Source of the DNA: a virus
Length of the DNA stretch: 64,000 bases
Virus record (IMG/VR): IMGVR_UViG_3300045988_061615
Reading direction: 5' to 3' (one strand)
The notes beneath the pieces were generated by a model. The model saw only the letters and a list, made by a program, of their open reading frames with translations. It ran no database searches and was not told where the DNA came from. The translations under genes and the position numbers were made by a program. Of the stretch, positions 2,487-55,636 are shown piece after piece (the stretch's first letter is position 1; each line of letters begins with the position of its first letter).

Positions 2487-5400
2487 TGTAATGTCTTTTC
2501 AATTACTATATTGTTGCTTGGATTGGTAGAACCATTACCTCCCACCTTTTTAAGGTCAGTATAAGCTATAGGTACATTATACTTGTAAGCCCAAACCTTA
2601 GTATTATCCTTTAGTTGAAGCTTGTATGATTTACCAAGTATTCTCTCCCTCGAAGCTGTTGTCATAGAAGGAGTCTCAACCTCATCACCACTACCTATAT
2701 TCCATATAATGTAATTAGGATATTGCTGTGCTGAGTTAACCTTTACTGTAGCAGTATTAGTTGTATTGTTCTCAATCTGACTAGATACTGGGTAGTATTC
2801 TAACAACCAAGGAATATTCTTTGCAGGTAATTCCTTATTAGAAGTTAACTTATATCCAGTAGCCTGACACATTACATATCTTACATAATTCAAGCTTGCA
2901 TCAGTGGAGATTTGAACACATTGTCTTTCTCTATCTGGTAAGCTAGTATACCATGAAGGAGTTAAGGAAGTATCGTAAACGATAGGTTCCATTGTCCTAC
3001 TTGGGTTCTCTCTTATATATCTTGAATTGGCATATGTATGTTTGTGACCACATAGGCATAGTTTAAAATCATTATCTTGCATCCATTGGCTGAACCAATA
3101 ACTACCTACTGTATTTAAGTGACTACCACCCCTCTTGATGTTTAGGTCTTTATCATAAGTTCCACTCTCATTTTTCTTTAGATAACTCATAATTAAGTCA
3201 GCCGTAATGATAGTAAATGGAGCTTCGTGACAGAACGCAACCTTCCACTTAATTTTAGCATCAGCTGCGTGTTGTGCCAAATCAGCAGTTGCCCAGTCTT
3301 TTAAGTCATTATATACATTCACACCAGTTATATCTCCGAACACGTCTGTCCTCGCTAATTCAGTGATTTCAGAGTTCATAGACAAGAAATAGGTGTTACC
3401 ATATACGAAACTATAGCAGCAGGGTATGTACACTCCAGCAGACGAAATGGGTACTGTATAAGGGTGTTCAAATGTAAAGAAAAATTCTACATTGGCTGGG
3501 TTAGTTTTACTTTTATCTTCCCCATCCCCTAACGTGTACACATCTACAGGTGTTAAATCATTGTTGCCTACTGAGTACATCTGTTCTGTATCTCTATAGA
3601 TAACATCTCCTCCCTTGTAATAGTCAATCCATTCATTAAATCTATTACCATTCTGAGTTTGGTCTCCAGTATTTAAACACCATTCATATGGATTCTCAGC
3701 TTTGTCAGAGTTGATATACTCTGCACTAACTCTCCACATTTCATACTCTTCTGCATTGAAACCTTGTTGGTCACTTACTTGTAGGAAGTTAAATCCTCTT
3801 TCAATAACCTTGTCCCTATTTCTAAGAGTAAATGACCTTTCCTCAGTCCACGCTCCGTCTCTTCCTACCTTGTAATAATACTTCTGAGTATCAGTAGGTT
3901 CGTCGAAGTCTTTAATGAACTTATGAACTGTAAATGGTGTACCATCTGTAGTTATACTTCTAATCCTATTGTATATTTTATTAGCCCAATTCTTGTGGTT
4001 GGTAGGTCTGTTAGGATTCTGGCTAACGTCTTCTGTATTGAAGTCTTCTTTCTTGAAAGACTCAAACTTATTCTCTGGAGTATATTCTTCCCCATCTTTC
4101 CTTATCCAGATATATTCATCATAATATCCAACTGATACCCAGTTAAAGCATCTAGTCTTATGTGCGTCATGTCCTAATGTACAAGTAACAATGTTAGGAG
4201 CACCCTCAACTAATAGATGTTTATTGAAGAATATATTCTTATTTTGTGATGAGTTCTTAGGAGTGTACTCTTGAATATCAATAGCAGGGTTAATCTTATC
4301 CATATTGATGTAAGTCCAGTCCTTAACATTACTCCTAGCACTCAGAGCCTTAGTAGCTTGCTTAACTGGGTCCATATTATAGTAACGCATTAATAATACA
4401 TTACTTCCCTTAGTAGCTATAGGAGATGCTTCACATGGCATTGACTTATCATTGTAGTTACCTATTCCGACTAAATCTACATACCATTTAATCACTCCAT
4501 TAGTAGTCCAAGGTGCTGTACTATTCATAACAGTAGTCTTGAAGTAATCTGTTGTTTCCTCACTACTAATGTAGAATGCACAGTCGTAACTAAATTTGAT
4601 GCAGTTATCTTTGCTAGACCAAATACTATGAGCTTGAACTCCAGCACCTTCATCCACAGCAATCTCAAGCCTTGTATTATTAAGAGTGTCATCTTTAGTC
4701 CAATACATATCAGGTTCACCAACTCTAATTAGTGTAGTATTGATGTTCTCTACTGAGCATTGAGCACCCTTAATCAAGAATGTGCCTTGAGATTTAAGAG
4801 TACCAATTAGAGGTAATGTAACCCAATCTCCACTATTCCTTTCTGTGTAATGTAAGTATAATCCTTTTAGATTTAAGTCCTTCTTACCTAGGTTACATAG
4901 TTCTACGAAATTGTGAGATACTGGATTATAATCCTTATCCTCAGATGTTCCTCCACAATATACCATATTAACATATATCTTTGGAGAGTCTTTAGAACCA
5001 ACTTCCTCTGGAATAATTGGGAAATAAGGAGTAGTATAATAAATTCCAGTACCTTGAGTCTGAGCATTACCAGCTAAAGTATTCTTATCTAATCTATAAT
5101 CATGTATATCTAACTTGCCATCCTTAACCTGAATAAGGAATGTATTCTCTTTATTCGTCATGTCAGCGAACTCAATACCAATAATCTTGGTTTTAGCTCC
5201 ACTACCACTTCCAATGACTTCGGTTAATATTCCATCCATTGTCTCTGGGTCTGGTCCAGGTCCTGGGTCTTCTCCACCACCTGTGCTACCTATTTTAATT
5301 AATTTATATGTCTTAGGGTCTTTAATCCATAATGTCTGAGTATCATAACACCATAACAATTCTTTCGGTAGGAAATCACCCTTATTAGCCTGCATTTCTG

Positions 5401-17635: not shown

Positions 17636-18013
17636 TTATACGTTGAAGTCAGCTCTAACTTTAGTTTTGATTTCTCCTACTAGTGTAAGATAGTCTAGGT
17701 ATTTCTGTCTATCAGTTTGATTATCAGATAATCCTAATACAATACTGTTGGAGCTGTTGATTAAATCAAACTCTTCATCTTGGTCTACATACTGCCTAAT
17801 AATAGCTTTAATGCATTCTTTATGGTCTGGTTGACCATGTAGATGAACCTGAACATATGTCCACCTTGTTTCTTGTGTTACATCTTCTGTTTCTGGGTCT
17901 ATAACATCAACCACCTTTGACTTAATGTCATAGTTATAGTAATATGTGCCATTACCTAGTTTCTCTATTGAGTTAGGTTGTACATTCATTTCTATTCTTC
18001 TTGGTTCTAACAT
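17636..18013 (-). CDS. hypothetical protein downstream of DGR RT
   Basis: 125-aa ORF that overlaps the 3' end of the RT gene. It is not basic, so it is probably not an Avd accessory protein. Confidence 0.4.
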   Translation of the reverse strand: MLEPRRIEMNVQPNSIEKLGNGTYYYNYDIKSKVVDVIDPETEDVTQETRWTYVQVHLHGQPDHKECIKAIIRQYVDQDEEFDLINSSNSIVLGLSDNQTDRQKYLDYLTLVGEIKTKVRADFNV

Positions 18014-19208
18014 AAGGTCTTATTTTAAAATTTACTGGGAATGAATATCTGGTTAGAGAGTAGAATAGGTCCCTACTCTTGCTCTCAAAGTAATAAGATT
18101 TGTTATTGTACACAAAGTTAACCCTAAAACACTTGCTATAGCTAACCATATCTACAACATGAATATACTTGTTATAAAATCTTGAAATATTAGACTTCTT
18201 CCCATCCCAATTAGAGAACCTTAAACCTGTATCTCTTTGAATCTTTCTTAATAGATTCTTAGAATTACAGAACTTTAGCCAACCAAAGTATGATTGCATT
18301 CTCCTTCTCAATTCCTGTCTGTCAATCTTACCAGACTGATATTTCCTAACAAGTCTGAATAGTCTAATCTTAATTGACTTCCTTAGTAATACATGGGTAT
18401 GATAGAACCTATAACCTACAAAGTCTATACCTCTATCATCTACTGGGAATATTTGGTAATTTGATTTTAACCTTAAATTTAGAACCTCCTTCAAGTACAT
18501 CTTAATTGCTATAAGTACTGTTCTCAAGAAGTTCTTATCACTGCTGAGAATTACAATATCATCAGCATACCTGAAATAGAATTTACATTTCAACTCTTCC
18601 TTGACCCAATGGTCAAAGTAAGCTAAGTACAGATTAGCGAAGAACTGCGATAAGTAATTACCTATAGGAACTCTGTCGGCAGAATATATGATTTCAATAA
18701 GCAATAGTAAAAGACCTTGGTCTTTAATCTTCTTCTTAATGATTTCACATAGTATGTCGTGATTAACAGATGGGTAAAACTTTCTGACATCCATCTTAAG
18801 ACAGTACATTGTCTCCTCTGGATGTTTAGTTAATGCCGCTCTTAGGTCATAAGCTACATTATGAATTCCTCTATCTTTGATGCAAGAGTAAGTTTGCTTA
18901 ATAAATATTTTAGTCCAAATAGGTTCCATCACGTTCATTATAGCGTGATGTGTTATCCTATCTGGATAGTATGGTAGTCTAAATATCAACCTTTCTTTAG
19001 GTTCGTATATCTTAAACGTACTATACTCAGAGGTTTCATATACTAAGTCTTTTAATTGCTCAGATAACCTCTCATTCTCCTCCTGTCTATTCCTGTCATG
19101 CTTGAGGATTCCCCATCTAGCTGACTTATGCTTTCTAGCCTTATCATCAGCTTTCTCAATATTCTCTATATCATAAACCTTCTCATGTAAATAACCTATA
19201 CGTTTCAA
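17973..19208 (-). CDS. DGR-type reverse transcriptase
   Basis: 411-aa ORF with the RT motif RYADDIVILS (YADD box). Carries the DGR-typical PIGNYLSQFFANLYL motif. Lies immediately downstream of a TR/VR pair. Confidence 0.9.
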   Translation of the reverse strand: MKRIGYLHEKVYDIENIEKADDKARKHKSARWGILKHDRNRQEENERLSEQLKDLVYETSEYSTFKIYEPKERLIFRLPYYPDRITHHAIMNVMEPIWTKIFIKQTYSCIKDRGIHNVAYDLRAALTKHPEETMYCLKMDVRKFYPSVNHDILCEIIKKKIKDQGLLLLLIEIIYSADRVPIGNYLSQFFANLYLAYFDHWVKEELKCKFYFRYADDIVILSSDKNFLRTVLIAIKMYLKEVLNLRLKSNYQIFPVDDRGIDFVGYRFYHTHVLLRKSIKIRLFRLVRKYQSGKIDRQELRRRMQSYFGWLKFCNSKNLLRKIQRDTGLRFSNWDGKKSNISRFYNKYIHVVDMVSYSKCFRVNFVYNNKSYYFESKSRDLFYSLTRYSFPVNFKIRPYVRTKKNRNECTT

Positions 19209-19354: not shown

Positions 19355-19457
19355 AAGCCTACATTCGTATTAGCATTACTGACTCCATTATTAGAATTGA
19401 AGTAGCTAAGACTAGCATTACTACCATTATTAGCGTTGCTGCTAACGATGAGTGTTT
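19355..19457 (-). repeat. DGR template repeat (TR)
   Basis: Non-coding copy of the VR, about 103 bp. Differs from the VR at 19 positions, and every one is an adenine on the minus (coding) strand in the TR. Confidence 0.85.
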
Positions 19458-19540: not shown

Positions 19541-21571
19541 TTAAACTGCCTTATTTAGTGTTCTGAAGCCCACATTCGTATCAGCATTACCGACCCCATA
19601 ATGAGAATCGAAGTAGCCAAGACCAGCATTACCACCAGTATGAGCGCGGCCGCCAACGACGAGCGTTCTTAATGCTGTGCTTGAAGCATTGCAGTAGTGA
19701 TAGTCACACATGTAAGTAGTAGCAGAACCGCCAACTACTGAAGGTATGATTTCACCAGTTTCTCCAAGGTCAAAGTCCTTTGTCCATCCATCAGCTGCTA
19801 CTTCTGTACCAGCAACAGTCATCTTACCTTTAGCAGTATTATCGTCTCCGAATGCTGTTGGGTCAGTAGTAGTGTACACACTACTTGGTTGATTAGCTTC
19901 TGTTCTCTCTAGGATAATGCCATCCAAGTTAGTCCAGATGTCTCCGAATGGATTATCGAATCCTCTCCATCTTGGAACCTTGAATGTTTTAGATGCTACT
20001 GTCGTAGACTCATTTATTACTGTTTCAGGAATAACTAAATCCTTAACTCCAGTAAAGTTACCAATATCATTACAGTATCCGCATGGTGTTAATGGGTAAT
20101 AACCATTATAGTTATTCCAGTTAGTTCCATCCCATGTAGTAACACCATCTCCTAGTCCACCTTGATGATAACCATCAGCTGTTAAGTCAGCAGTGTAAGC
20201 CTTCTGTGAGTTTAGTGTAGCATACTCGATAACCCAAGCCCAGTAGAATATCCACTTGTAATATTCATAGCATAGCATTTCTGAACCAGCATTAGTAGCA
20301 TAAGTTCTCATGTTTGCTCTTGAGATATTAGTTCTTGGCTTACCTAAATCACTCCTAAACTTATCTGTCTCCAAATATGTGTCATTAGCTGTTCTGTTAC
20401 CTCCACCCCTGAACTGAGTAGTGGTATTAACAACTGATACAGCTTTAGGAGTTGCGGATACAGTAGTATCAACAGTGCTTCTATAAGCATCTACTAACAT
20501 TTCTGGAATCTCAATCCACGTATCATCCATTTTAATAGTAGACATTCTAACCCATCTCTTAGTACCTTCAACTCCAGACTTACCATAGAACTTAGGAATG
20601 TGTACCCTTACAGTACCATCAGTTCCATCAAGTACTGAATCACTTCCGTCAGCTTTCTTGGACCAGTCATTAGGGTCTAGGTAATAATTAATCGTAGCTC
20701 CGTCAGCTACACAACCTTTATACTGAGATTGTACTGGTAATGACTTATGTAGTAATGGATTACCAATTCTAGTTAGTGTTGGGTCTGCTACTGTAGAATC
20801 CCATTCAACTCCGTAGGAGTAAATGTCTTCTAATCCAGTGTAATCAATTCCTCCTCCGCCTTGGTTATCTTGCCATTCAGCTGTTCCATCACCAGTATTT
20901 ACTAGGATTTGTCCTTTAGCTCCTCCAGCTGGAATATGTTTGTTACCTGCTGTAGTAGGGTGTACATAGTTGTTAGCATTAGCTGCCACACCTTGTAGTT
21001 TAGTCTTCTCAGCTGTTGTATAATCTTCTGTAGATAATTGTTTACCTTCAACCTTATCCACCTTATTAGCTATCTTTGCTACTTCTTGCTTCTCAGCTGT
21101 TGTGTAGTCGTTAGTAGATAACTGCTTACCGTCTACCTTATCAACTTTTAGAGCAATAGCAGCTGTGCTTCTTGCCTCAGAATCCTCAATAGCTTTATCT
21201 ACTTGTGTCTTGTTGTAGTAACCTGTTAGGTCTACCTCTACGTGCTTATTACCTAAGAACTCCCATCCAGTCTTCTCACTAGTAACCATCCATATATATT
21301 CATCATATACATCGTTGGCTCTAGAGCCTTCATTAGGAACCATGTAAATGGTATTGGGATTACCCTTAGCTGGTAGTTCTGTAACAACAAGAACTTTACC
21401 ACCTGCATCAGCTATTGCATCAGTTACCCACTGTTCTGTAGCTAAACCTTCAATTACCTTATTAACAGTAGTTGACTTATTAGCCCCATTCTGAACGATA
21501 GGGATTAACTCATCACCAGCCAGTGTCGTAGCAGGGGTCATTTGAGAGATTTTAATGTCAGTTGCTGCCAT
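19541..21571 (-). CDS. DGR target protein: tail-fibre-like receptor-binding protein with C-terminal variable (C-type-lectin-like) region
   Basis: 676-aa ORF. Carries GKQLSTNDYTTAEK..KL phage-fibre repeats. The VR sits at its C-terminus. Confidence 0.8.
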   Translation of the reverse strand: MAATDIKISQMTPATTLAGDELIPIVQNGANKSTTVNKVIEGLATEQWVTDAIADAGGKVLVVTELPAKGNPNTIYMVPNEGSRANDVYDEYIWMVTSEKTGWEFLGNKHVEVDLTGYYNKTQVDKAIEDSEARSTAAIALKVDKVDGKQLSTNDYTTAEKQEVAKIANKVDKVEGKQLSTEDYTTAEKTKLQGVAANANNYVHPTTAGNKHIPAGGAKGQILVNTGDGTAEWQDNQGGGGIDYTGLEDIYSYGVEWDSTVADPTLTRIGNPLLHKSLPVQSQYKGCVADGATINYYLDPNDWSKKADGSDSVLDGTDGTVRVHIPKFYGKSGVEGTKRWVRMSTIKMDDTWIEIPEMLVDAYRSTVDTTVSATPKAVSVVNTTTQFRGGGNRTANDTYLETDKFRSDLGKPRTNISRANMRTYATNAGSEMLCYEYYKWIFYWAWVIEYATLNSQKAYTADLTADGYHQGGLGDGVTTWDGTNWNNYNGYYPLTPCGYCNDIGNFTGVKDLVIPETVINESTTVASKTFKVPRWRGFDNPFGDIWTNLDGIILERTEANQPSSVYTTTDPTAFGDDNTAKGKMTVAGTEVAADGWTKDFDLGETGEIIPSVVGGSATTYMCDYHYCNASSTALRTLVVGGRAHTGGNAGLGYFDSHYGVGNADTNVGFRTLNKAV
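19565..19667 (-). repeat. DGR variable repeat (VR) at 3' end of target gene
   Basis: About 103 bp aligned with the TR at a 210-bp offset. Mismatches are restricted to TR adenines (A to G/T/C). Lies inside the last 43 codons of the 676-aa ORF. Confidence 0.85.
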
Positions 21572-44235: not shown

Positions 44236-44790
44236 TGGTGAATACTCATAGTGCAGGAGTACAACTGCACTAACTGGGCTTGTATGGTTTTGACAGGCGA
44301 TTACGAGTTAGTAAGACGTGTAGAGTTGGCACCAACTCTTTAATAATGATGCACAATTTTAAGTGGAAACACTGAAGTAAGAATGGCAGCCTAAGCTGCT
44401 GGCTTATCTATTAATTTAGCTCTAAGTCGGGTTAATGGGAGAGACCTAGAAACAGAAGAGGTGTGGGAAGAAGCGTATAGGGCAGCCCACTTAACTTGAA
44501 CGCCAAAGGTTAGTAGAGCTGAAATCTCCGTCACCTAGCTATGGGTTACAAATAGACGTTCTCCAACGTAAATGGAGTGGTGGAGCGACCGTTCGGTCAA
44601 GCCCAGTTTGGTAGTTTGTGAACAACTAAGTCGTAGCCTTACGAGGAGACGTAATTGGTGAATTAACACTCAGCTTCTTAGTAAAACTACCTACATGCTG
44701 AACTCAACAGCTGATGTAATAAAATAGAGATACACGTAATCTTATTATTTAGAGTTGTGAAGACCGCGGTTCGAGTCCGCGATGGTCCAC
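44236..44790 (+). ncRNA. ORF-free structured region ending in an orphan tRNA-like T-arm and acceptor 3' half (candidate tmRNA, interrupted tRNA or att core; unresolved)
   Basis: No ORF of 60 aa or more is present. The 3' end (44765-44789) is CGCGG-TTCGAGT-CCGCG-ATGGTCC-A, i.e. a tRNA T-arm plus acceptor strand. No matching 5' acceptor lies within 90 nt upstream. Confidence 0.3.
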
Positions 44791-44817
44791 TATTATTAAC
44801 GTTTAAATATCAATTTT

Positions 44818-46665: not shown

Positions 46666-47043
46666 ATCCACTATTGACGAATGGTGGTAGCAAAACTTGG
46701 TCTGAAGAACCAGTAGACATATTCCGGAGTATGTCTATGACTTAAAGGCTATATCAAAGAGTTGAAACCTGTATCTATTCGAACAGTAGAAGTTCACCTG
46801 ATTAAGCATCAGAAAACAGTAGTGCAAATCTACTATAGCTATTGTGTAAGAGAGAATCTACACGGTCTGCATTATATAATCAGCATGCAGATAGGTCACC
46901 AAGCAAACCTCTTTCCTGCCTGGTCAAGTGTGCATTACGGTCTGTAAGTGGCGAGCGGGTTAACGTATGTCCGATTGCCGTAATGCCGCTTGTTTATTGT
47001 TTAGAATAAAGAAAGACTCTCATAACAATAAATTTAACAAGAG

Positions 47044-48738
47044 ATGGAAATGAAAGGAGCACAAAGGCCAAGGAGGCCTTACCCTAATGCCGCACGTCAA
47101 AGGCGGGATGAGAATAAACCTAAGTTTGTGGATACTAATCAGTTATTCATAGACCAGTTTGTTAATCTTAAGAAATGTCTTCAGCCACGTACCTACGTGC
47201 AAGTGGCTAAAGATATGTATCCTTTATGGAAAGCTAATCCATTACTATGTACCAAGTTTACTGCATATACGAGGATGATAACTCGTAAATGTAGAATAAC
47301 TACCCCGGAAGGAGTTATACAGCTTGATACACAGCAAGGAGAAGGTTTGAAGAATGAAGGTATAATGAGGATGCTGTGGTTGGCAATCTATCACAAACCC
47401 ACATTCCATGCCAACATTGCTTATTTTGCAGCAGCTGGATGCTGGAAAGATTTCATTACTATGATGGCTTTAGATGTTCAACTCCATGGCTTTAAGCACA
47501 GATTGGATTGGGACTTCTTCAAGAAAGTCATATTCGCAGGTCTTGCCAACGGTCAGACATGTGATTTAGTAAAGAAGTATCTTCCTCGTGTTCGTTCCAG
47601 TGTTGCATGTAAGACAGATGAGGCAAAAGCACGTAACACAGTAGCCAAATTCTTGGCGGAAGGCCTTTATGGTAAACCTAAGGACGAAGGAGACTATTCA
47701 ACCTATCGTAAATATAGGAAGATGAAGAATAGCGGGAAAGCAGCCCAATGGCAGCAGTTAATCAGTCAAAAGAAATTCTTGGAAATTGATTTTGACACTG
47801 TTACTGGAAAGGCGCTGGCACAGCTAGTAGGCTCTAAATTCCTCAAACATCAAGGTCTTAAAGAGAAGTATCAGAACTGGTTGAAGAACCGTAAGAAGCC
47901 CTCTAATAGCGGATTTCTACATACTCTGTTCAAACCATACGGATTGGATAAAATTGCCGAAGAGATTCCAGAATTTATGGAAACTTCTATTAATGCAAGT
48001 TTCAATGTATTTGTTGATAATGCTAAACGCAATAGAGTAGCTCCGTTGTTGGTAGTAAGAGATATAAGTCATTCTGCTAATGGTGAGATAGAGAATAGCG
48101 AAACATCTGCTTACAGTTTGGGTAAAGCATATGCTTTATATCATTCTGAATTACTTCCTACAATATTCAAGAACTCCTATGCCGTGTTAGAGGATAACAT
48201 GGTTCTACGTAAGTTCAAAGGTCAGAATGTCATTGAGAAATGGAAATCTGACAAAGAAGAAGCATTATGCCAGAATCCTTCTATTATTAATATAGCAGAA
48301 ATGCTGTGTAAAATGAAAGAAGATTATGGTGTGGATGAAGGAGAGTTCCCTAGAGGCTGTGTGGTAATTACTAACCATACATATTTTACCAAGTTGAACA
48401 ACCAAGCATTCGTGGAATTTAAGCAAAGACTGCTTAAAGCAAATTTCAGTAAGGAATTTGTAAGAGCATTCAAAGTTATCATTTGGAGAGTTCCTTTAGC
48501 ATATAAGGGAAGACCTAATGTGGCTTTGGTTCCAGGAGTGTCAAATTGCTTCTTAGTAAATGGACTTAATAATTCAACATCCTCATTTATTACTGGAGAG
48601 AAGAGGTTCCAGGTGCCTAAAACCACTAGAGACATCTTTAAGCATGCTATGAATCAAGAGTTGCTTAATATGATGATTCTAGAGAAGGATGTTGTCAAGA
48701 AGAATGCAAGCGTGCAGAAGAAGCCTGTGAAGGCCTAA
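47044..48738 (+). CDS. hypothetical protein (564 aa)
   Basis: Long uninterrupted ORF with a basic N-terminus. Confidence 0.55.
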   Translation: MEMKGAQRPRRPYPNAARQRRDENKPKFVDTNQLFIDQFVNLKKCLQPRTYVQVAKDMYPLWKANPLLCTKFTAYTRMITRKCRITTPEGVIQLDTQQGEGLKNEGIMRMLWLAIYHKPTFHANIAYFAAAGCWKDFITMMALDVQLHGFKHRLDWDFFKKVIFAGLANGQTCDLVKKYLPRVRSSVACKTDEAKARNTVAKFLAEGLYGKPKDEGDYSTYRKYRKMKNSGKAAQWQQLISQKKFLEIDFDTVTGKALAQLVGSKFLKHQGLKEKYQNWLKNRKKPSNSGFLHTLFKPYGLDKIAEEIPEFMETSINASFNVFVDNAKRNRVAPLLVVRDISHSANGEIENSETSAYSLGKAYALYHSELLPTIFKNSYAVLEDNMVLRKFKGQNVIEKWKSDKEEALCQNPSIINIAEMLCKMKEDYGVDEGEFPRGCVVITNHTYFTKLNNQAFVEFKQRLLKANFSKEFVRAFKVIIWRVPLAYKGRPNVALVPGVSNCFLVNGLNNSTSSFITGEKRFQVPKTTRDIFKHAMNQELLNMMILEKDVVKKNASVQKKPVKA

Positions 48739-48901: not shown

Positions 48902-48975
48902 AGAGATATAGTTCAGTGGTAGAACAGCTAAAGTCAATCTTTAGAAGAACATCAGTTCGAATCTGGTTATCTCTA
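48902..48975 (+). tRNA. noncanonical class-I tRNA, anticodon CAA (identity unclear)
   Basis: Acceptor AGAGATA/TATCTCT. D-arm GTTC-AGTGGTA-GAAC. Anticodon arm CTAAA-GTCAATC-TTTAG. T-arm ATCAG-TTCGAAT-CTGGT. 2 nt at position 26 and a 6-nt variable loop. Confidence 0.45.
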
Positions 48976-49078
48976 CACCATTTTATTAATATGATTCTTT
49001 CAACATATGCAGTGTCATTTCTATCTCGACTCATAGTCATTATTACGAGTTAAAGTATCTGCAATTGTTGAATAACTA

Positions 49079-49114
49079 CTAAGCTCATCGGTTCGAGAGA
49101 ATATGTGAGCTTAG
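49079..49114 (+). repeat. conserved-loop hairpin, copy 1 (loop TCGGTTCGAGAGAATATG)
   Basis: 9-bp stem CTAAGCTCA/TGAGCTTAG. Member of a four-copy family with the same loop consensus and different stems. Confidence 0.55.
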
Positions 49115-49225
49115 TTTAATACCGAGCAAACTTCTATCGTATTTAATACATATTAACTTTTACATGTGGGGAAGATTCATTACCTTTGCACTCACAATTC
49201 ACAGTTAATATGGATTGTGTGATTC

Positions 49226-49309
49226 GGGCACGTAACCGGTAATTGGTAGCCGCGTAGACTGTAAATCTACTCCTTAATTGGACTGGAGGTTCGAGTCCTC
49301 CCGGGCCCA
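49226..49309 (+). tRNA. tRNA-Tyr (GTA), type II
   Basis: Acceptor GGGCACG/CGGGCCC with one A.G mismatch. Anticodon arm GTAGA-CTGTAAA-TCTAC. Long variable arm. T-arm GGAGG-TTCGAGT-CCTCC. Confidence 0.6.
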
Positions 49310-49362
49310 CTCACACTGCGATAATTAAATACAATATCTGTTGAGGTCAAACTCGACAAACC

Positions 49363-49390
49363 CTTCTATGGTTCGAGAGAATAGTAGAAG
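49363..49390 (+). repeat. conserved-loop hairpin, copy 2 (loop TGGTTCGAGAGAATAG)
   Basis: 6-bp stem CTTCTA/TAGAAG. Confidence 0.55.
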
Positions 49391-49396
49391 TAAACT

Positions 49397-49468
49397 GCGG
49401 GATTCGTATAATGGTTATTATAACAGCCTTCCAAGCTGAAGATGACAGTTCAATTCTGTTATCCCGCT
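49397..49468 (+). tRNA. tRNA-Gly (TCC)
   Basis: Acceptor GCGGGAT/ATCCCGC. Anticodon loop CTTCCAA. T-arm GACAG-TTCAATT-CTGTT. Confidence 0.7.
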
Positions 49469-51044
49469 CATTATTAATAATAGATTAGATTATGAAAGAG
49501 ACATCATTTAAGGCAGGTGTTATTGGTGGATTATGTGGAGTATTTACCTTCTTGGCATTATTTGCAACCACAAGTAAAGCATCAATTAATGAGTCTGCTG
49601 CTACTAATGGAGATTATAAAATCAACAGAGTGCAGTATGAATTTATTAACGAACTAACCATTTATAAGGTATCAGGTCCTGGTATTCCAGGTATTAAGTA
49701 TGTGCTTAGAGATTCCGAGAAAGGTGGTTTATGTGTATTAAATCCATGAGTGAACACTGTCTTATTAAGAAGAATACTCCAGAACTTCGTAAGAAACTAG
49801 AGGATGCTGGGTTAAGTGTGTGTATATGTACTACATTTGAGGATGCTGATTGGCTTAGTTGCTGGGGTTCTCATATGTCATATGATGTACATGGTGTGTA
49901 TCCGGATGACGTGGACGATTTGTCTAAAGAAGCCTATCTGGAGATGTATCTCAAGGAAACGAATCCGATTATATGTGAATCGGATGATGAGTTTATTAAC
50001 ATGTGTAAACAAATTAAAGGGAAATGATTATGCGGTAGATTACTTACAAGCCACCATAAGATAGTTGATTATTAATTAAGGCAATTTATTTATTAACTTA
50101 TTAACAATTAACTATCATGGCAACAATTAAACAATTTAAACAAGAAATCGCGAATTTAGTAAAAGCACAGAAAGCAGCTAAGAATATTAATGACTGCTCA
50201 TCAGTTTATTACAACAGAGGAAGATTACATGCAATGTATGTAGCTTATTACATATTAAAGCATAAACTAATCGGAGAAGCTATGGATGAGTATCTCGCTA
50301 AAGTTATCAAAGAATGGAAATCACTTGAAACTCAAGGTTGGTGTGGTTATTCTAAGATGTATAGTGGAGAGAAGTATTTCCGAGAAAGAGTTGATTCACT
50401 GATTGATACATATTCTGATGAAGAGATTGTATGTGCTGATAGACCAGAAGCTTGATGCAGTTTATGGTTGTGTACAAGGAGGTCATGCAGTAGCGCAGTG
50501 GTTATTAGAACATCCTAAGCAGGATTGGAATAATAACTACTTAATCTACTTATATGCTGACTTGGACAAATGGAAAGTAAGACTGGACTTAGTTAATAAG
50601 GACTATTCTTCATTCTATGAACCAGACCTTGGCAATCAATTAACAGCAATCGCATTACAAGATGACGGTCGCATGTTCAAGAAACTTAAATTAGTAAGAG
50701 AATGATATACAAACGAGATTATTATGTCAGTATAGGTGACGAACAGGTAATTATTACTAAGAACGCCATTATGCCATATAATGTAATGGAGCCTAGAAAC
50801 AAATACTTTTATAAAGTTGGAGATAAGGTTTTAACTCCGTTCGGGATACAAACTATTAAGGACATTATAAAGGATTATAGTTCTCAACCAGGTCATGAAT
50901 GGATTATCCTAGTAGAGGAGAATGGCAATCAGTATAAGCCGTGTGAGTTAATTGGCATAGTAGTCAAGGAACTTACACTTGAACAGTGGAATCAAATTAT
51001 CGAATAGTTGATGAGTTGTGGGTAATCTCGTAAAACCCTCTGTC

Positions 51045-51116
51045 GCCCCATTACTTCAGTGGTAGAAGAGCAAATTCTAAACTTGTATGGCGTTGGTTCG
51101 AGTCCAACATGGGGCA
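51045..51116 (+). tRNA. suppressor tRNA, anticodon CTA (reads UAG)
   Basis: Acceptor GCCCCAT/ATGGGGC. D-arm CTTC-AGTGGTA-GAAG. Anticodon arm GCAAA-TTCTAAA-CTTGT. T-arm GTTGG-TTCGAGT-CCAAC. Confidence 0.7.
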
Positions 51117-51118
51117 CT

Positions 51119-51197
51119 TGCGGAGGAATGAAACGGATATATAAATCATACTAGTCTCATAAGCTAGTTATATTGGGTTCGACTCCCATCTCCGCAA
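51119..51197 (+). tRNA. tRNA-Met/Ile2 (CAT) with enlarged D-loop
   Basis: Acceptor TGCGGAG/CTCCGCA. D-stem ATGA/TCAT with a 14-nt loop. Anticodon arm CTAGT-CTCATAA-GCTAG. T-loop TTCGACT. Confidence 0.5.
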
Positions 51198-51297
51198 CTA
51201 CAATCATTGTACATTTGCATTTTCAGAATGTTAAGAAGACACACAGCAATTTCCTGTATGTTGGCATAAGTAAATGAATCTATTGTCTTCTGATGAT

Positions 51298-51370
51298 GGG
51301 TGTATAACTCAGGTGGTAGAGTAACACGCTGATAACGTGTAAGTCCTTGGTTCAAGTCCAAGTACACCCA
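51298..51370 (+). tRNA. tRNA-Ile (GAT)
   Basis: Acceptor GGGTGTA/TACACCC. D-arm ACTC-AGGTGGTA-GAGT. Anticodon arm ACACG-CTGATAA-CGTGT. T-arm CTTGG-TTCAAGT-CCAAG. Confidence 0.85.
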
Positions 51371-51472
51371 CAATACAACAATTTTCAATAGCTTTGAATA
51401 AGAAGTCTTACGGCACGAAAGAAAGTGTTTCATATTTTATGATTTTAATTAAACTAAGAGACTTCTGTAGTC

Positions 51473-51545
51473 CGGGATGTAGTTCAGTAGATAGAATGCG
51501 TGGTTTGGGACCACGAGGTCGCTGGTTTGAATCCAGTCATCCCGA
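51473..51545 (+). tRNA. tRNA-Pro (TGG)
   Basis: Acceptor CGGGATG/CATCCCG. Anticodon arm CGTGG-TTTGGGA-CCACG. T-arm GCTGG-TTTGAAT-CCAGT. Confidence 0.85.
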
Positions 51546-51600
51546 CCCCCTGTAGCATCCAAGAGAGGATGCTGATAATCCCATAATAGCAAATATGGAC

Positions 51601-51630
51601 AACTACTCAGTTCGTGAGAATAGAGTAGTT
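51601..51630 (+). repeat. conserved-loop hairpin, copy 3 (loop AGTTCGTGAGAATA)
   Basis: 8-bp stem AACTACTC/GAGTAGTT. Confidence 0.55.
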
Positions 51631-51770
51631 TTAATAAGAACCATAATTAACACAATAATATATAGTTTCACTAAACAATCATCAAATCAACTCAACAATC
51701 AACCCAACAACTTTTAATTTATGATTTGATTAACCTGTTTCATAGTTAAGCCCATAAGTCGTATTGATAT

Positions 51771-51842
51771 GTGGGCTTGCCCGAGAGGTTTAGGGGCTGG
51801 TCTGCAAAACCAGTTAGGACGGTTCGATTCCGTCAGCCCACT
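51771..51842 (+). tRNA. tRNA-Cys (GCA)
   Basis: Acceptor GTGGGCT/AGCCCAC. Anticodon arm CTGGT-CTGCAAA-ACCAG. T-arm GACGG-TTCGATT-CCGTC. Confidence 0.8.
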
Positions 51843-51925
51843 CTCGATTTAGTGAAACATAAGAAGGCGTACAGCACTAATCATTGTACAGTTTACATGT
51901 TTTTGATAACGCGCCTTCTGTGGAT

Positions 51926-51997
51926 GATTCCGGAGCATGTATGGATATGCTATAGACTTTTAATCTATAGAACAGGGTTCAAGTCCCTGCGGAATCA
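51926..51997 (+). tRNA. tRNA-Lys (TTT)
   Basis: Acceptor GATTCCG/CGGAATC. D-arm GCAT..ATGC. Anticodon arm ATAGA-CTTTTAA-TCTAT. T-arm CAGGG-TTCAAGT-CCCTG. Confidence 0.85.
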
Positions 51998-52037
51998 CAT
52001 ATGTACTAAGATTGTACATGATGTCAAAGAACGAGTT

Positions 52038-52070
52038 TAACCACTCAGTCTGTGAAGATAGAGTGGTTTA
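52038..52070 (+). repeat. conserved-loop hairpin, copy 4 (loop AGTCTGTGAAGATA)
   Basis: 10-bp stem TAAACCACTC/GAGTGGTTTA. Confidence 0.5.
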
Positions 52071-52102
52071 TTTAGATTATTAATTTAAAATCAGATACAT
52101 TT

Positions 52103-52246
52103 ATGAGTAAGATTATTGGAGTATTGTTAGTAATTGGTTCTGTTATAGGAACAGTTGCTTGTATAGCTCAACATCAATTTAATCCATTCACTGGAGTATT
52201 GTTGTTGCTAGTATTTTGCTTTGGTTGCTGTTTAGCGATGAGCTAG
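52103..52246 (+). CDS. micro-ORF encoding a 47-aa two-transmembrane-helix peptide
   Basis: MSKIIGVLLVIGSVIGTVACIAQHQFNPFTGVLLLLVFCFGCCLAMS. Lies between tRNA genes. Confidence 0.3.
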   Translation: MSKIIGVLLVIGSVIGTVACIAQHQFNPFTGVLLLLVFCFGCCLAMS

Positions 52247-52422
52247 ATTATTTATTTATTGACTAAAACTGATGTATTATGAGACTATTTAAGTTAATTA
52301 AGAAAGCAGTTCGTTGGTATTTTAGAATAGCTGCAAATAGCTATGCTTGGACACCAACAGGAGTAGTTCCTTACCATAGGGATTAACTCCGATGCAATCG
52401 GGATAGGTCAATTAAACATTAT

Positions 52423-52494
52423 GGCAAGTTAGCTCAGTGGTAGAGCAGTTGGCTGTTAACCAATTGGTCGCAGGTTCGAGTCCTGCACTTGCCG
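52423..52494 (+). tRNA. tRNA-Asn (GTT)
   Basis: Acceptor GGCAAGT/ACTTGCC. D-arm GCTC-AGTGGTA-GAGC. Anticodon arm GTTGG-CTGTTAA-CCAAT. T-arm GCAGG-TTCGAGT-CCTGC. Confidence 0.85.
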
Positions 52495-52608
52495 CATTAT
52501 TAACATTAAATTATAAGATTATGCATAGTTTTGGTGCTTACATTGTGGGAGCTATAGTGCTAGTAGTATTGTATTACATCTTTAAAGATTCCACAATCTA
52601 AAATTGAT

Positions 52609-52683
52609 GCGTCCTTAGCTCAATCGGTAGAGCCCCTGTCTCCAAAACTGGGTGTGTTGCATGTTCGAGTCGTGCAGGGCGTG
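52609..52683 (+). tRNA. tRNA-Trp (CCA)
   Basis: Acceptor GCGTCCT/AGGGCGT with two G.U pairs. Anticodon loop CTCCAAA with one T.T mismatch in the stem. T-arm GCATG-TTCGAGT-CGTGC. 7-nt variable loop. Confidence 0.6.
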
Positions 52684-52729
52684 CATGGTAGAAAATAGAT
52701 AGGTTATCTATTAATTAGAATTACTAAAT

Positions 52730-53137
52730 GTGAAGTGTTCCGTATGTGGAAAGCAATTAAGTGCTGGTAATCAATCTGGATTATGTCAAGAATGTTACCG
52801 TAAGAAAGTAAACGAAGATAAGATTGCAAAGTGGAAAGAGACTGGAGATACTGGATGTAAAGTTTCAACTACGCTTAGAAATTGTATCAGAGATTATATT
52901 GCAGATAAACAGGAACACAAGTGTGCTATATGTGGTATAGATAGTGTATGGCAGGGCAAGCCCCTGAACTTTATACTTGACCATATAAACGGAGATGCTT
53001 CTAACAACTGGGAACATAATTTACGATTAATATGTCCTAACTGTGATTCACAGTTGGACACTTATAAGTCTAAGAATAAGAACAGTGCTAGAACACATAG
53101 AAAGAAATATCAAGGAAGTATGCCGGAGCCAGGTTGA
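52730..53137 (+). CDS. HNH endonuclease with N-terminal zinc ribbon; 3' end reads into tRNA-Ser
   Basis: 135-aa ORF. LDHINGDASNNWEHNLRLICPNCDS is a classic HNH core. The last 8 codons are encoded by the 5' part of tRNA-Ser(TGA). Confidence 0.65.
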   Translation: MKCSVCGKQLSAGNQSGLCQECYRKKVNEDKIAKWKETGDTGCKVSTTLRNCIRDYIADKQEHKCAICGIDSVWQGKPLNFILDHINGDASNNWEHNLRLICPNCDSQLDTYKSKNKNSARTHRKKYQGSMPEPG

Positions 53138-53200
53138 ACGGAACGGACTTGAAATCCGTAGGCCCTTCGGGGTCCGGGGGTTCGAATCCCTCTGCTTCCT
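53114..53200 (+). tRNA. tRNA-Ser (TGA), type II
   Basis: Acceptor GGAAGTA/TGCTTCC. D-arm carries the ATGCCGGAG signature. Anticodon arm ACGGA-CTTGAAA-TCCGT. Long variable arm GGCCC..GGGTC. T-arm GGGGG-TTCGAAT-CCCTC. Confidence 0.8.
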
Positions 53201-53219
53201 CAACTAATTTGAATGTACT

Positions 53220-53543
53220 ATGAAGTTTAAAGTGAAATTAAGGAGAGTGTCTACGTTAAGTAGAAACCAAATTTGTAGAGTGTACGAATCTGGAATGCGA
53301 GAAATGGTAAAACGTCCCACATTAGTTAGAGTCCTTCTTAAGGATTACAAAACTAAAGAAGATGTTAATGCTTTACTTGAGCAATTAAGCGAAGCAAGTA
53401 GAGCCGCTGAACAGGATTTATATGCAGAGTACCCAAAGTTGCCCAGAAAGGCTAAGAAGGAACTCAAGAAAAGGTTGAATGCAGTCAATAATGCCTATTG
53501 TGTTGGTATTACTTTATTGCTGGCTGAATCAGATGGCTTATAA
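53220..53543 (+). CDS. hypothetical protein
   Basis: 107-aa ORF. Confidence 0.45.
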   Translation: MKFKVKLRRVSTLSRNQICRVYESGMREMVKRPTLVRVLLKDYKTKEDVNALLEQLSEASRAAEQDLYAEYPKLPRKAKKELKKRLNAVNNAYCVGITLLLAESDGL

Positions 53544-53826
53544 ATTCATACCTACTCGATATGTAGACAATAACTCCAAGTTGTTGGCAAGAATTTACTT
53601 AAATAGACAAAATTCTCGCCGAGTGGTATTACGAGGATACTATGATTTTGATAAAGAGAAGTTTTACATTTCATCTATATCAAAGAAGGCTAATACAAGG
53701 TCTGTGATGAAGTTCTTACTAAAGACTATAGAATGTAGTAGATTTCATTGGGAGTATTCAGGTAACTATGATGATAAGCTCTATCAAGAGTGGTTAAAGG
53801 AACATGCAGTATTTAATAGATTGTAA
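53479..53826 (+). CDS. hypothetical protein
   Basis: 115-aa ORF. The true start is probably an internal ATG, because the ORF overlaps the previous gene. Confidence 0.4.
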   Translation: MQSIMPIVLVLLYCWLNQMAYKFIPTRYVDNNSKLLARIYLNRQNSRRVVLRGYYDFDKEKFYISSISKKANTRSVMKFLLKTIECSRFHWEYSGNYDDKLYQEWLKEHAVFNRL

Positions 53827-53919
53827 AATTATCGTATGAAAGGAATTAATTTAACAGGATTGGACATGAAGAAGTTTGTTGGAACCGGCTACAACCCGTC
53901 TCAAGACATTATTAACACT

Positions 53920-54226
53920 AATGGTAGAGACGATGGAAGAACTAAGAACGGAGAGACTGAAGGATTCACTAATCCAAAGAAACAAAAGGTGGAGGAACCT
54001 AAAGAAAGACCAGAAGTATATTACTAGGATTAAACTCCACGCTGCCTACTGGTATAATCCAGATAAAACGGCAAGAGGTAGACATTGGACAGAATTATAT
54101 AATTCTAAATATACGTTTGCCTATAAAACAACCAGCACTCCTTGTAATTGTCCTATATGTAAAGGAGAACGCTATAATAGGAGACAGTTTAAGAAAGAGA
54201 CAAGAGAATTACTTAATCTAGAATAA
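53920..54226 (+). CDS. basic zinc-ribbon protein (CNCPICKG)
   Basis: Frame of track ORF 53876..54226, taken from the first ATG. Overlaps the alternative-frame ORF 53836..54027, so one of the two is probably spurious. Confidence 0.35.
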
Positions 54227-54296
54227 CTGAATGGGTAATATAAGAAGGCATCAGCACTTTTACTGTGTCATGTAGTTCAATTTGCCTTCTGATGAT

Positions 54297-54369
<73 letters not shown>

Positions 54370-54375
54370 CTAATA

Positions 54376-54687
54376 GTGGTTAACATGATTGGGTTCGTAG
54401 AGTATTTAATTAGTAAAGGGTATAAACCTTATCGCAAGGTAATGTCTAAGAAGGGTTCTACATATGTAGAGGATTCTAATATAGGATTTTATTCTTCTAT
54501 GTCAGAGCATATTGACCTTCGTCTTATTAAAGGTAAGAAGGAAGTAGTGTATGGATTACATGAGAGAGGACATTCTCCTACTCTTATATATCCTAGACCT
54601 AAATGGGTTAAATCTGATGCAGATATGGATAGACTATTTCTGAATTATTCATTTGAAGAAATTGCTGAAATGATAGGTTTAAAATAG
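54376..54687 (+). CDS. hypothetical protein
   Basis: 103-aa ORF. Confidence 0.45.
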   Translation: MVNMIGFVEYLISKGYKPYRKVMSKKGSTYVEDSNIGFYSSMSEHIDLRLIKGKKEVVYGLHERGHSPTLIYPRPKWVKSDADMDRLFLNYSFEEIAEMIGLK

Positions 54688-54874
54688 TGCACAATGAGGA
54701 GGGTATGCATGTAGAGTTCTATAACATGCTATGGGTTGGAGTCGGAGACTGACAAGAACAGTTGGGGCATGACTAAGTAATTGTGCATTTTATAGGTTAT
54801 CAGACCGGTAGGTAACCTTCCGTAATCAGTCGGACGTTGGGAGCTGATAGCCCTACGATAGTGTGGCTAAATAT

Positions 54875-54947
54875 GGGCTGTGTAGTGTAAATGGCTAACA
54901 CATCACTCTTGCACAGTGAAGTTGGAGTTCGAGTCTCACACGGTCCA
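54875..54947 (+). tRNA. tRNA-Ala (TGC)-like, imperfect T-stem
   Basis: Acceptor GG(G)CTGT(G)/..ACGGTCC. D-arm GTGT..ACAC. Anticodon arm TCACT-CTTGCAC-AGTGA. T-loop TTCGAGT with only 3-4 stem pairs. Confidence 0.5.
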
Positions 54948-54975
54948 CAGATTGTTGAACTTAAATTGAAAGGTA

Positions 54976-55554
54976 ATGAATCGAGAAGAATTAGAAGATT
55001 TGAAAATAACCAAGATTAGTGAAGAGGAATATGAACGCCTTAAAGATTCAGACGAAGGAGAAGCTATGGAAGTGTCAATTGATTCATTAAAAGCTGAACA
55101 AGAGAAGCTAAAAGAGTCAGCATCATTACTTGATGAAGCAAAGAAGGCATTTTCAGCTTATTGGTTCTTACTGTCCCTCTTTGTAGGACAGAATCTATGT
55201 TTGGGTGTTGTATTGTGTCAAATCTATTCAGCATGGTCTAAAGGAGAACCCCTCGGATTTATGGTACTATGTGCCATATCAATAATAGTGGCTGCTTCAT
55301 ATTCATGGAATGCAATAAGACCATATCGAGAACGATATAAGAACTATAAACAAGTTCGCACTGCTTATAGTCGTCTGGTTGAAGCTAATAGAGCTGTGTT
55401 GGAATTACTGGAATATGTAGAATCTAAGCCCAAAGAAGAAAGAGCTGAAGAAGCCGAAGAGTTAGCAGAGCCAGTAGTTATGGCTGTAGCTGAACTATTC
55501 TTTGCTAGAATGGCATACACTAGGGCACTAAAAGAAGGATTAGAGTTGCAATAA
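54976..55554 (+). CDS. membrane protein with coiled-coil termini
   Basis: 192-aa ORF. Central hydrophobic segments (FLLSLFVGQNLCLGVVL, FMVLCAISIIVAA) are flanked by E/K-rich helices. Confidence 0.5.
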   Translation: MNREELEDLKITKISEEEYERLKDSDEGEAMEVSIDSLKAEQEKLKESASLLDEAKKAFSAYWFLLSLFVGQNLCLGVVLCQIYSAWSKGEPLGFMVLCAISIIVAASYSWNAIRPYRERYKNYKQVRTAYSRLVEANRAVLELLEYVESKPKEERAEEAEELAEPVVMAVAELFFARMAYTRALKEGLELQ

Positions 55555-55562
55555 CTCAATAT

Positions 55563-55636
55563 GGTGGCATTAGCTCAATTGGCAGAGCATTAGGTTGTGG
55601 TTCTAAGGGTTACGAGTTCAAGTCTCGTATGTCACC
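55563..55636 (+). tRNA. tRNA-His (GTG) with encoded G-1
   Basis: G-1 plus acceptor GTGGCAT/ATGTCAC with discriminator C. Anticodon arm TTAGG-TTGTGGT-TCTAA. T-arm ACGAG-TTCAAGT-CTCGT. Confidence 0.8.

Follow-up and report, generated by a model that had tools for sequence, protein, structure and literature searches.

What appears to be a Zeta crAss-like phage of the human gut carries, inside its tRNA cluster, a real tRNA gene with the amber-reading anticodon CUA, and this gene is kept by selection in a lineage whose genes, in the regions examined, do not need TAG as a sense codon. With somewhat better than even confidence, we read it as a functional UAG-decoding tRNA of a standard-code Zeta lineage that is not there for the phage's own genes and would act on ordinary, mainly host, UAG stops. 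A selected stop-reading tRNA in phages without recoded genes is a puzzle already recognised for this clade, and the idle CUA tRNA itself has been reported before and is not new. New here are the mosaic nature of the window (the whole 64,000-nucleotide stretch analysed, IMG/VR record IMGVR_UViG_3300045988_061615), the orphan isotype of the tRNA, the distinct suppressors (at least one of them Gln-type) in recoded sister phages, and the lack of TAG adaptation in the carriers.

A conserved amber-reading tRNA gene

ARAGORN calls a 73-nt tRNA with anticodon cta at 51045-51117(+), and RF00005, the tRNA model of Rfam, covers 51045-51116 end to end, from model position 1 to 71 of 71, at 62.7 bits where the gathering score is 29 (E = 3e-11 over the 64 kb searched). 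Together with a direct reading of the anticodon loop, this bears out the coordinates and the anticodon given in the preliminary description, which had folded the gene by hand. The acceptor stem is GCCCCAT/ATGGGGC with discriminator A73 and no encoded CCA, followed by a D arm CTTC-AGTGGTA-GAAG, an anticodon arm GCAAA-TTCTAAA-CTTGT, a variable loop ATGGC and a T arm GTTGG-TTCGAGT-CCAAC, which is the architecture of an ordinary type-I tRNA. As in amber suppressors, 5'-CUA-3' occupies positions 34-36 of a 7-nt loop, with U33 on one side and the purine A37, followed by A38, on the other; an A37-A38 'extended anticodon' context favours efficient suppression. The gene also carries G1-C72, C10-G25 and an A31.C39 mismatch. 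The cloverleaf had been described as clean, and this holds for the covariance model and for the covariation presented below, but pair 31-39 is mismatched and the thermodynamic fold contains no cloverleaf (minimum free energy (MFE) -22.6 kcal/mol, z = -2.1, acceptor and T arms only). Since the MFE fold misses it, the cloverleaf rests on the covariance model and on covariation.

The label 'Pyl' that ARAGORN attaches to the gene stems solely from the anticodon. A tRNA-Pyl has a 3-nt variable loop, a small D loop without G18G19, a 6-bp anticodon stem and pylS/pylBCD genes alongside. The canonical D loop with GG, the 5-nt variable loop and the 5-position anticodon stem do not fit this identity; the T loop included in the comparison reads TTCGAGT, and none of the pylS/pylBCD families occurs in the recorded Pfam hits of genes within +/-10 kb of the tRNA on the contigs of its lineage. 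The decoding principle is the one known from laboratory amber suppressors (E. coli supE/supF and engineered CUA tRNAs). Those, however, arose in one step from tRNA-Gln or tRNA-Tyr and their charging is known, whereas the tRNA described here fits no isotype and carries the 31-39 mismatch.

With respect to conservation, the CUA tRNA is found in 27/27 strain-level loci of the lineage that owns it (lineage B, defined below). Its sequence is identical in 26 of these, giving two alleles of which the major one accounts for 96%, and it is among the least variable tRNAs of the cluster; the identical 73 nt recur in 17 IMG/VR loci. Homologues occupy the same position in the cluster, always behind tRNA-Tyr and tRNA-Gly, in relatives whose adjacent 564-aa protein is 84/83, 68, 63 and 45% identical. 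Six distinct CUA tRNA sequences could be aligned, and in this alignment 95.2% of the stem cells are paired and 9/21 stem pairs have changed on both sides in a compensatory manner, with all four stems affected. None of 500 shuffled controls reached the observed values (0/500), and sliding the 3' partners lowered pairing to 29-53%.

The triplet CTA together with A37, A38 and C39 is constant in the six distinct sequences, whereas positions 32/33 vary (TC in L278, a single strain, and CC in lineage C, the 63% lineage), so that U33 is replaced by C in L278 and throughout lineage C. A fixed CTA-A37-A38 amid changing 32/33 and stems is what selection on a folded, codon-reading tRNA predicts. Pair 31-39 is mismatched (A.C or C.C) in 6/6 distinct sequences. 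Given this mismatch and the C33 variants, the tRNA may decode with modest efficiency, and the unusual C10-G25 pair is a further feature that could reduce it.

The gene lies, as had been described, within a phage tRNA cluster of 19 tRNAs on the + strand between 48.9 and 61.6 kb (Table 1), in which ARAGORN calls neither a tRNA-Gln nor a tRNA-Val in the window. The tRNA-Met-like element directly behind the CUA tRNA is aberrant in its D region, which is too long, and Rfam gives no match for it at E<=1; other strains have a canonical tRNA-Met of 72 nt in this place, 1 nt behind the CUA tRNA. The cluster opens with an odd tRNA at 48902-48976(+), which has anticodon CAA ('Leu') yet a short variable arm, and its loop GTCAATC has a pyrimidine at position 37. 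In relatives, the anticodon loops of the equivalent gene differ strongly or defy interpretation (tga, ct, taaa, ttag). The RAGATH-34 RNA is located directly upstream of the gene for the 564-aa protein, at the head of the cluster, and three relatives also have it upstream of their homologous protein. Further along, a 212-aa ORF at 59142-59780(+) has a weak HNH endonuclease match; it is present in some strains (L004, L005), missing from others between the same neighbours, and is likely a mobile homing endonuclease.

Table 1. Positions of the features discussed; coordinates refer to the window unless a contig is named.
Feature	Position	Strand	Basis or remark
CUA (amber/UAG-reading) tRNA gene	51045..51116	+	ARAGORN, Rfam RF00005, covariation in all four stems, conserved loci
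Anticodon loop TTCTAAA of the CUA tRNA	51075..51081	+	CTA at 51077-51079, read directly from the sequence
tRNA cluster with the CUA tRNA	48902..61563	+	19 ARAGORN calls among small ORFs
tRNA-Met-like element, loop CTCATAA	51118..51198	+	Starts 1 nt after the CUA tRNA
101-aa ORF ending in TAG	50702..51007	+	38 nt upstream of the CUA tRNA
564-aa protein gene	47044-48738	+	Homologues carry DUF2828/DUF7788; PHROGs 'RNA-binding protein'
RAGATH-34 RNA	46668-46775	+	119 bits
tmRNA	44276-44792	+	Rfam 50.3 bits here, 72-96 bits in relatives
Mosaic junction, lineage A to lineage B	44238..44308	.	5' end of the tmRNA gene
Diversity-generating retroelement (DGR) in the lineage-A part	17973-19208(-), 19355-19456, 19566-19667, 19541-21571(-)		Complete
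Tandem CTA tRNAs of a recoded sister	L384:1831-1903/1909-1981 (IMG/VR 3300045988_108145)		CTA anticodons, U1-A72
Tandem CTA tRNAs of a recoded sister	L356:1339-1411/1417-1489 (IMG/VR 3300045988_083600)		CTA anticodons, U1-A72

A mosaic window and the lineage that owns the tRNA

The terminase large subunit (TerL) encoded in the window is about 30% identical to that of crAss-like phages, in agreement with the preliminary description, which had mentioned crAss-like phages among those that use such tRNAs. Contigs carrying the window's proteins measure 181-185 kb and come from human gut samples, and the GC content of the window is 36.8%. The two parts of the window, however, belong to different lineages. 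Positions 1-44237 are 90-100% identical to one group of contigs (lineage A), with a TerL that is 97-98% identical to that of lineage A and 59% identical to that of the tRNA-bearing lineage B. To the right of 44285/44309, the window matches lineage B at 96-99% identity up to its end and bears no relation to A; the 564-aa proteins of the two lineages share 44% identity. We find no CTA tRNA in lineage A, either in its tRNA cluster or near its SLT-domain gene.

It follows that the structural ORFs in 1-44237, which come from the tRNA-less lineage A, are no evidence on the genetic code of the tRNA's owner. Long structural ORFs had been reported as intact under the standard code, and they are: no gene in the window needs TAG as a sense codon. 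Their use as evidence on the code is where the argument fails, and the practical lesson is that judging the owner's code from the structural genes of a mosaic window misleads.

Whether the switch of lineage is natural is nearly an even call. A chimeric contig assembled from two co-resident Zeta phages, an artefact that would leave the tRNA itself unaffected, is a serious candidate to which we give slightly less than even weight. The lineage changes inside 44238-44308, and the junction is absent from the 24 long contigs around the last A-side gene and the 23 around the first B-side gene (10 places were fetched per flank, the remaining contigs being grouped as similar). Some contigs of these ~185 kb phages in public assemblies reach 202-372 kb (L008 with 270,378 bp, L295 with 372,390 bp, L430 and L431 with 337,704 and 316,849 bp), and Zeta phages are evidently prone to concatenated or chimeric assembly. 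Against an artefact, exactly shared stretches at the crossover amount to only ~20 nt in the aligned contigs, which is shorter than typical assembly k-mers, and Zeta phages are demonstrably mosaic; L027, for example, is 90-98% identical to the window between 36.6 and 44.2 kb and 44% identical at the next protein. A rare natural recombinant and a chimeric assembly are thus equally possible for the window.

From these features the phage is best described as a ~185 kb Zeta crAss-like phage of the human gut, and lineage B, the owner of the tRNA, matches the published 'clade 8', an assignment made by shared features that concerns only the right part of the window (>44.3 kb). The clade 8 genomes measure 164-188 kb, have a GC content of 36.5-36.9% and predicted Bacteroides hosts, and carry a CTA suppressor tRNA without any suppression in the 12 genomes surveyed (PMC12386605). 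Lineage B has ~182-185 kb, 36.8% GC, the tRNA in all 27 loci and the standard code, and agrees with clade 8 (PMC12386605, Table 1, rows 36-43) in size, GC, a cluster of >19 tRNAs, the CTA tRNA and the absence of suppression. One difference is that clade 8 is listed as DGR-negative (PMC12386605), while the window has a clear DGR; this is because the left 44 kb belong to a DGR-positive, suppressor-free sister clade. The preliminary description had also considered a host with a different code, for which we find nothing in favour, the predicted hosts being Bacteroides (PMC12386605).

Some further elements were observed in and around the two parts. The DGR consists of a reverse transcriptase (PHROG 1423, E=1.5e-112) and two repeats, a template and a variable one, the latter within the 3' end of a tail-protein gene, and mismatches between template and variable repeats sit at template adenines within the 102-nt repeat. 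The tmRNA at 44276-44792 has G3.U70 in its acceptor, and (A)GNTEVRMAA-stop is a plausible reading frame for its tag. A phage tmRNA goes unmentioned in the Zeta crAss-like paper (PMC12386605). In lineage B, the 345-393-aa gene near the SLT-domain gene has opposite orientations relative to the tRNA cluster in L296 (034415) and L302 (033017), and the SLT-like gene, a single 1253-aa ORF in L302, is broken in L296 into two pieces of 751 and 389 aa that lie in different frames.

Genetic code, stop codons and isotype

To the suggestion that any recoding would lie elsewhere in the genome, the carriers give a largely negative answer. We examined ~71 kb of the ~182-185 kb lineage-B genome, made up of the tRNA cluster and sequence to either side of it (the early region, 15 kb to the right and 21 kb of late genes), and ~84 kb of lineage A. 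Within these ~71 kb of lineage B, no gene needs TAG as sense. The first 11 kb of the late block, with the genes for TerL (765 aa) and portal (736 aa), are intact in the standard code on the tRNA-bearing contigs 033017, 052707, 034415 and 045464 plus eight more, where ORFs cover 0.905 under the standard code against 0.91 if TAG counts as sense, and a further 10 kb of late genes are intact in ten ENA contigs, with products of 467-654 aa that all end in TAA. The in-frame TAG in conserved late genes that characterises code 15 is therefore not seen in the ~71 kb of lineage B. Two more divergent lineages that carry the CUA tRNA behave in the same way: the 68% lineage (contig 044054) uses the standard code around TerL and portal, and the 63% lineage (contigs 034401 and 023864) does so at TerL, portal and a second conserved late gene.

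The suggested scan for genes interrupted solely by TAG thus returned none in the ~71 kb of lineage B, while the same test did detect recoding in sister phages. Sister contigs 108145 and 083600, whose late proteins are 84-89% identical to those of the window, served as positive control: with TAG as a sense codon their coverage climbs from 0.43-0.67 to 0.86-1.00, a rise also shown by four more distant relatives. In these recoded sisters nearly every large late gene is broken in the standard code, among them those for TerL, portal and the SLT-domain protein. In the standard code, 97-99% is coding both in the lineage-A part of the window and in the 40 kb beyond its left end. Across the window, reading TAG as sense raises the number of ORFs >=200 aa from 21 to 22, a smaller gain than with TGA or TAA, and rescues no split gene. 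At its left end the window holds, in 1-2498(-), the 5' part of an ORF of 2580 aa whose continuation lies in L063:10013-17755; this ORF is unbroken under the standard code and has TAG as its stop.

Usage of TAG as a stop codon does not set carriers apart. TAG ends 10/85 ORFs in lineage B and 9/111 in the tRNA-less lineage A, with no difference in TAG avoidance or in tandem back-up stops between carriers and non-carriers. In the window, several genes do terminate with TAG, as had been noted (8/87 greedy ORFs, 5/46 of those >=100 aa). In lineage B the next TAA or TGA follows 2-72 codons past a TAG and is no closer than after TAA/TGA stops. A strong suppressor would lead one to expect TAG avoidance or close back-up stops, and neither is seen in the carrier. 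This differs from the Lera group, in which TAG is rare and another stop lies close behind (PMC12386605); lineage B has no such pattern.

A single TAG stop is conserved across lineages: the 101-aa ORF that precedes the CUA tRNA ends in TAG at each of the 19 loci with an orthologue, even where identity falls to 67%, while the other TAG stops are TAA in orthologues. Programmed read-through of a conserved TAG-ended gene was considered and rejected, as only this ORF keeps its TAG and the distance to the next stop, 6 to 27 codons past TAG, varies by lineage (6, 25, 27). A link between the tmRNA and the suppressor, with the tmRNA rescuing read-through ribosomes, was likewise rejected, since relatives have a tmRNA whether or not they carry the CUA tRNA (it occurs in 4/4 relatives with that region scored, L025-L028, of which two have the CUA tRNA and two lack it). 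A theta/HDV-like ribozyme beside the tRNA, as reported for gut-phage suppressors (PMC10879173), was also not found, with no Rfam match at E<=1 between 44 and 62 kb.

The preliminary description called suppressors derived from tRNA-Gln typical, and a Gln-like suppressor does exist among these phages, but it is another gene. The recoded sisters carry two tandem CTA tRNAs 5 nt apart, next to the SLT-domain gene that TAG interrupts (763 aa in L384, where it was mapped); the D arm of these tRNAs resembles that of the same genome's tRNA-Gln(UUG). The window-type CUA tRNA is absent from the clusters of the recoded contigs (L247, L248). We assigned isotypes with profile HMMs made from tRNAs of these phages after masking of the anticodon, which classified 110/117 (94%) held-out tRNAs correctly and give true members a median of 51 bits and a median margin of 24 bits. 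The first tandem copy of the sisters scores 37.6 bits as Gln with a margin of 17.6, and the second is ambiguous, with Thr, Asp and Gln all at 22-23 bits. For the window-type CUA tRNA the best profile is Arg, at a weak and non-discriminating 22-28 bits with margins of 2-5, and Gln is outside the top six. By these scores the window-type tRNA, with its G1-C72 pair, classes as an orphan isotype and not as Gln-type; the tandem tRNAs of the sisters are not homologous to it.

Other comparisons point to no parent either. The best BLAST match among phage records is a weak one to a tRNA-Lys (78.6% over 55 nt, E=4e-3), a search against E. coli gives no match, and pairwise identity yields no isotype beyond a weak best match to Arg. 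That the gene arose from tRNA-Arg(UCU), by a shift of one base in the register of their common TTCTAA hexamer, is unsupported by the profile scores and is kept as a lead; the CUA tRNA and tRNA-Arg(UCU) have D and T loop variants in common in two lineages, which is suggestive.

The Gln-type code-15 suppressors of crAss-like, Lak and Jade/Sapphire phages (Borges et al., bioRxiv 10.1101/2021.08.26.457843; Peters et al., PMC9523058) are, like the tRNA described here, CUA tRNAs encoded by gut Bacteroidota phages. They accompany in-frame TAG in late and lysis genes, whereas the carriers of the window tRNA have no in-frame TAG in the regions examined. The tandem U1-A72 tRNAs of the sisters, too, adjoin a recoded SLT-domain gene, in contrast to the G1-C72 tRNA of the window, which occupies another locus and fits no isotype.

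Possible role of an old suppressor in a standard-code phage

Since no in-frame TAG is present in the lineage-B genes examined, the CUA tRNA would not be needed for the phage's own genes, and the most plausible reading is that of an anti-termination or read-through tool, a role that the preliminary description had listed among its options. We infer that the tRNA is expressed, charged and able to decode, and that it brings the phage a benefit. It would be transcribed together with the tRNA cluster, receive its CCA end from the host and be charged by a host aminoacyl-tRNA synthetase. In engineered CUA tRNAs in E. coli, U35 together with A73 tends to give Lys or Gln, and on this precedent these two amino acids would be favoured here. 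The charged tRNA could then compete with release factor 1 at ordinary UAG terminators, and the predicted outcome is a C-terminal extension of UAG-ending host proteins and of ~10% of the phage proteins. Candidate benefits are host take-over, the impairment of defence proteins and interference with TAG-recoded rival phages.

Among the other explanations, a transitional state is one that we regard as unlikely, though worth weighing in full: the suppressor would have been acquired before in-frame TAGs arose ('pre-emergence'), or would be a leftover after reversion. The genetic code switches at short distance in these phages, given that sisters with 84-89% identical late proteins are recoded and lineage A is not, and such a path has been proposed by Yutin et al. 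(PMC7886860) and Borges et al. Suppressor tRNAs without codon reassignment were noted in the zeta group by Yutin et al. in 2021 (PMC7886860), and Borges et al. (bioRxiv 10.1101/2021.08.26.457843) describe suppressor tRNAs in standard-code relatives of recoded phages. The 'pre-emergence' of Yutin et al. (PMC7886860), a suppressor without reassignment, is the situation of the window phage as well; the example they traced, however, is a recent one-base change of a tRNA-Gln (TTG->TTA) in one genome, whereas the window tRNA is ancient, widely conserved and has no recognisable parent isotype. It is syntenic down to 45% identity of its neighbour, and the three tested lineages that carry it (B, 68% and 63%) are standard-code, which indicates a stable and not a transient state. 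This is in line with the authors of the IJMS 2025 study (PMC12386605), who likewise argue for a stable state. In addition, the recoded phages are sisters of lineage A and not of the carriers, their suppressors are a different, tandem pair of CTA tRNAs, of which at least one is Gln-type and which lie at another locus, and TAG stops are not depleted in the carriers. The age of the tRNA, its unrelatedness to Gln-like suppressors and the unadapted stops thus speak against a 'first step towards recoding' and point to an effect on the host or on competing phages.

A bolder version of such an effect, to which we give a low probability, is that the orphan CUA tRNA might be a dedicated weapon, kept for this reason across diverged standard-code Zeta lineages, whose read-through would damage UAG-ending host proteins (e.g., defence proteins) or would prematurely unlock or scramble the TAG-gated late genes of recoded rival Zeta phages. 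If this were true, stop-codon suppression would be an inter-phage or host-takeover mechanism distinct from recoding, carried out by a tRNA family unrelated to the Gln-type suppressors.

It is rather improbable that the tRNA has a non-decoding role or is weak and nearly inert, serving as decoy or substrate of host tRNA-targeting nucleases or modification enzymes or in the processing of the cluster transcript, with the fold but not UAG reading under selection. The lack of any fitting isotype, the constant 31-39 mismatch, the U33->C change in two lineages and the absence of genomic adaptation to read-through would all suit a tRNA of this kind. The invariance of CTA and A37-A38 while 32/33 and all stems change argues for codon reading instead. 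We consider it very unlikely that the gene is an ordinary recoding suppressor for a few genes with in-frame TAG (e.g., lysis, tail fibres, polymerases) in the remaining ~110 kb: ~71 kb of lineage B have been read and published recoded phages sometimes confine recoding to modules (Borges et al.), but TerL, portal and the SLT-domain protein, all broken in the recoded sisters, are all intact in lineage B, and no suppression was reported for the 12 clade 8 genomes (PMC12386605).

Reading of ordinary UAG stops by the window-type tRNA, which we prefer, concerns one of several kinds of CTA tRNA in these phages. Besides the window-type tRNA and the tandem tRNAs of the recoded sisters, we observe a third kind in more distant relatives, 90 nt in length and with a long variable arm (type II), at L258:528-617 and L262:3132-3221.
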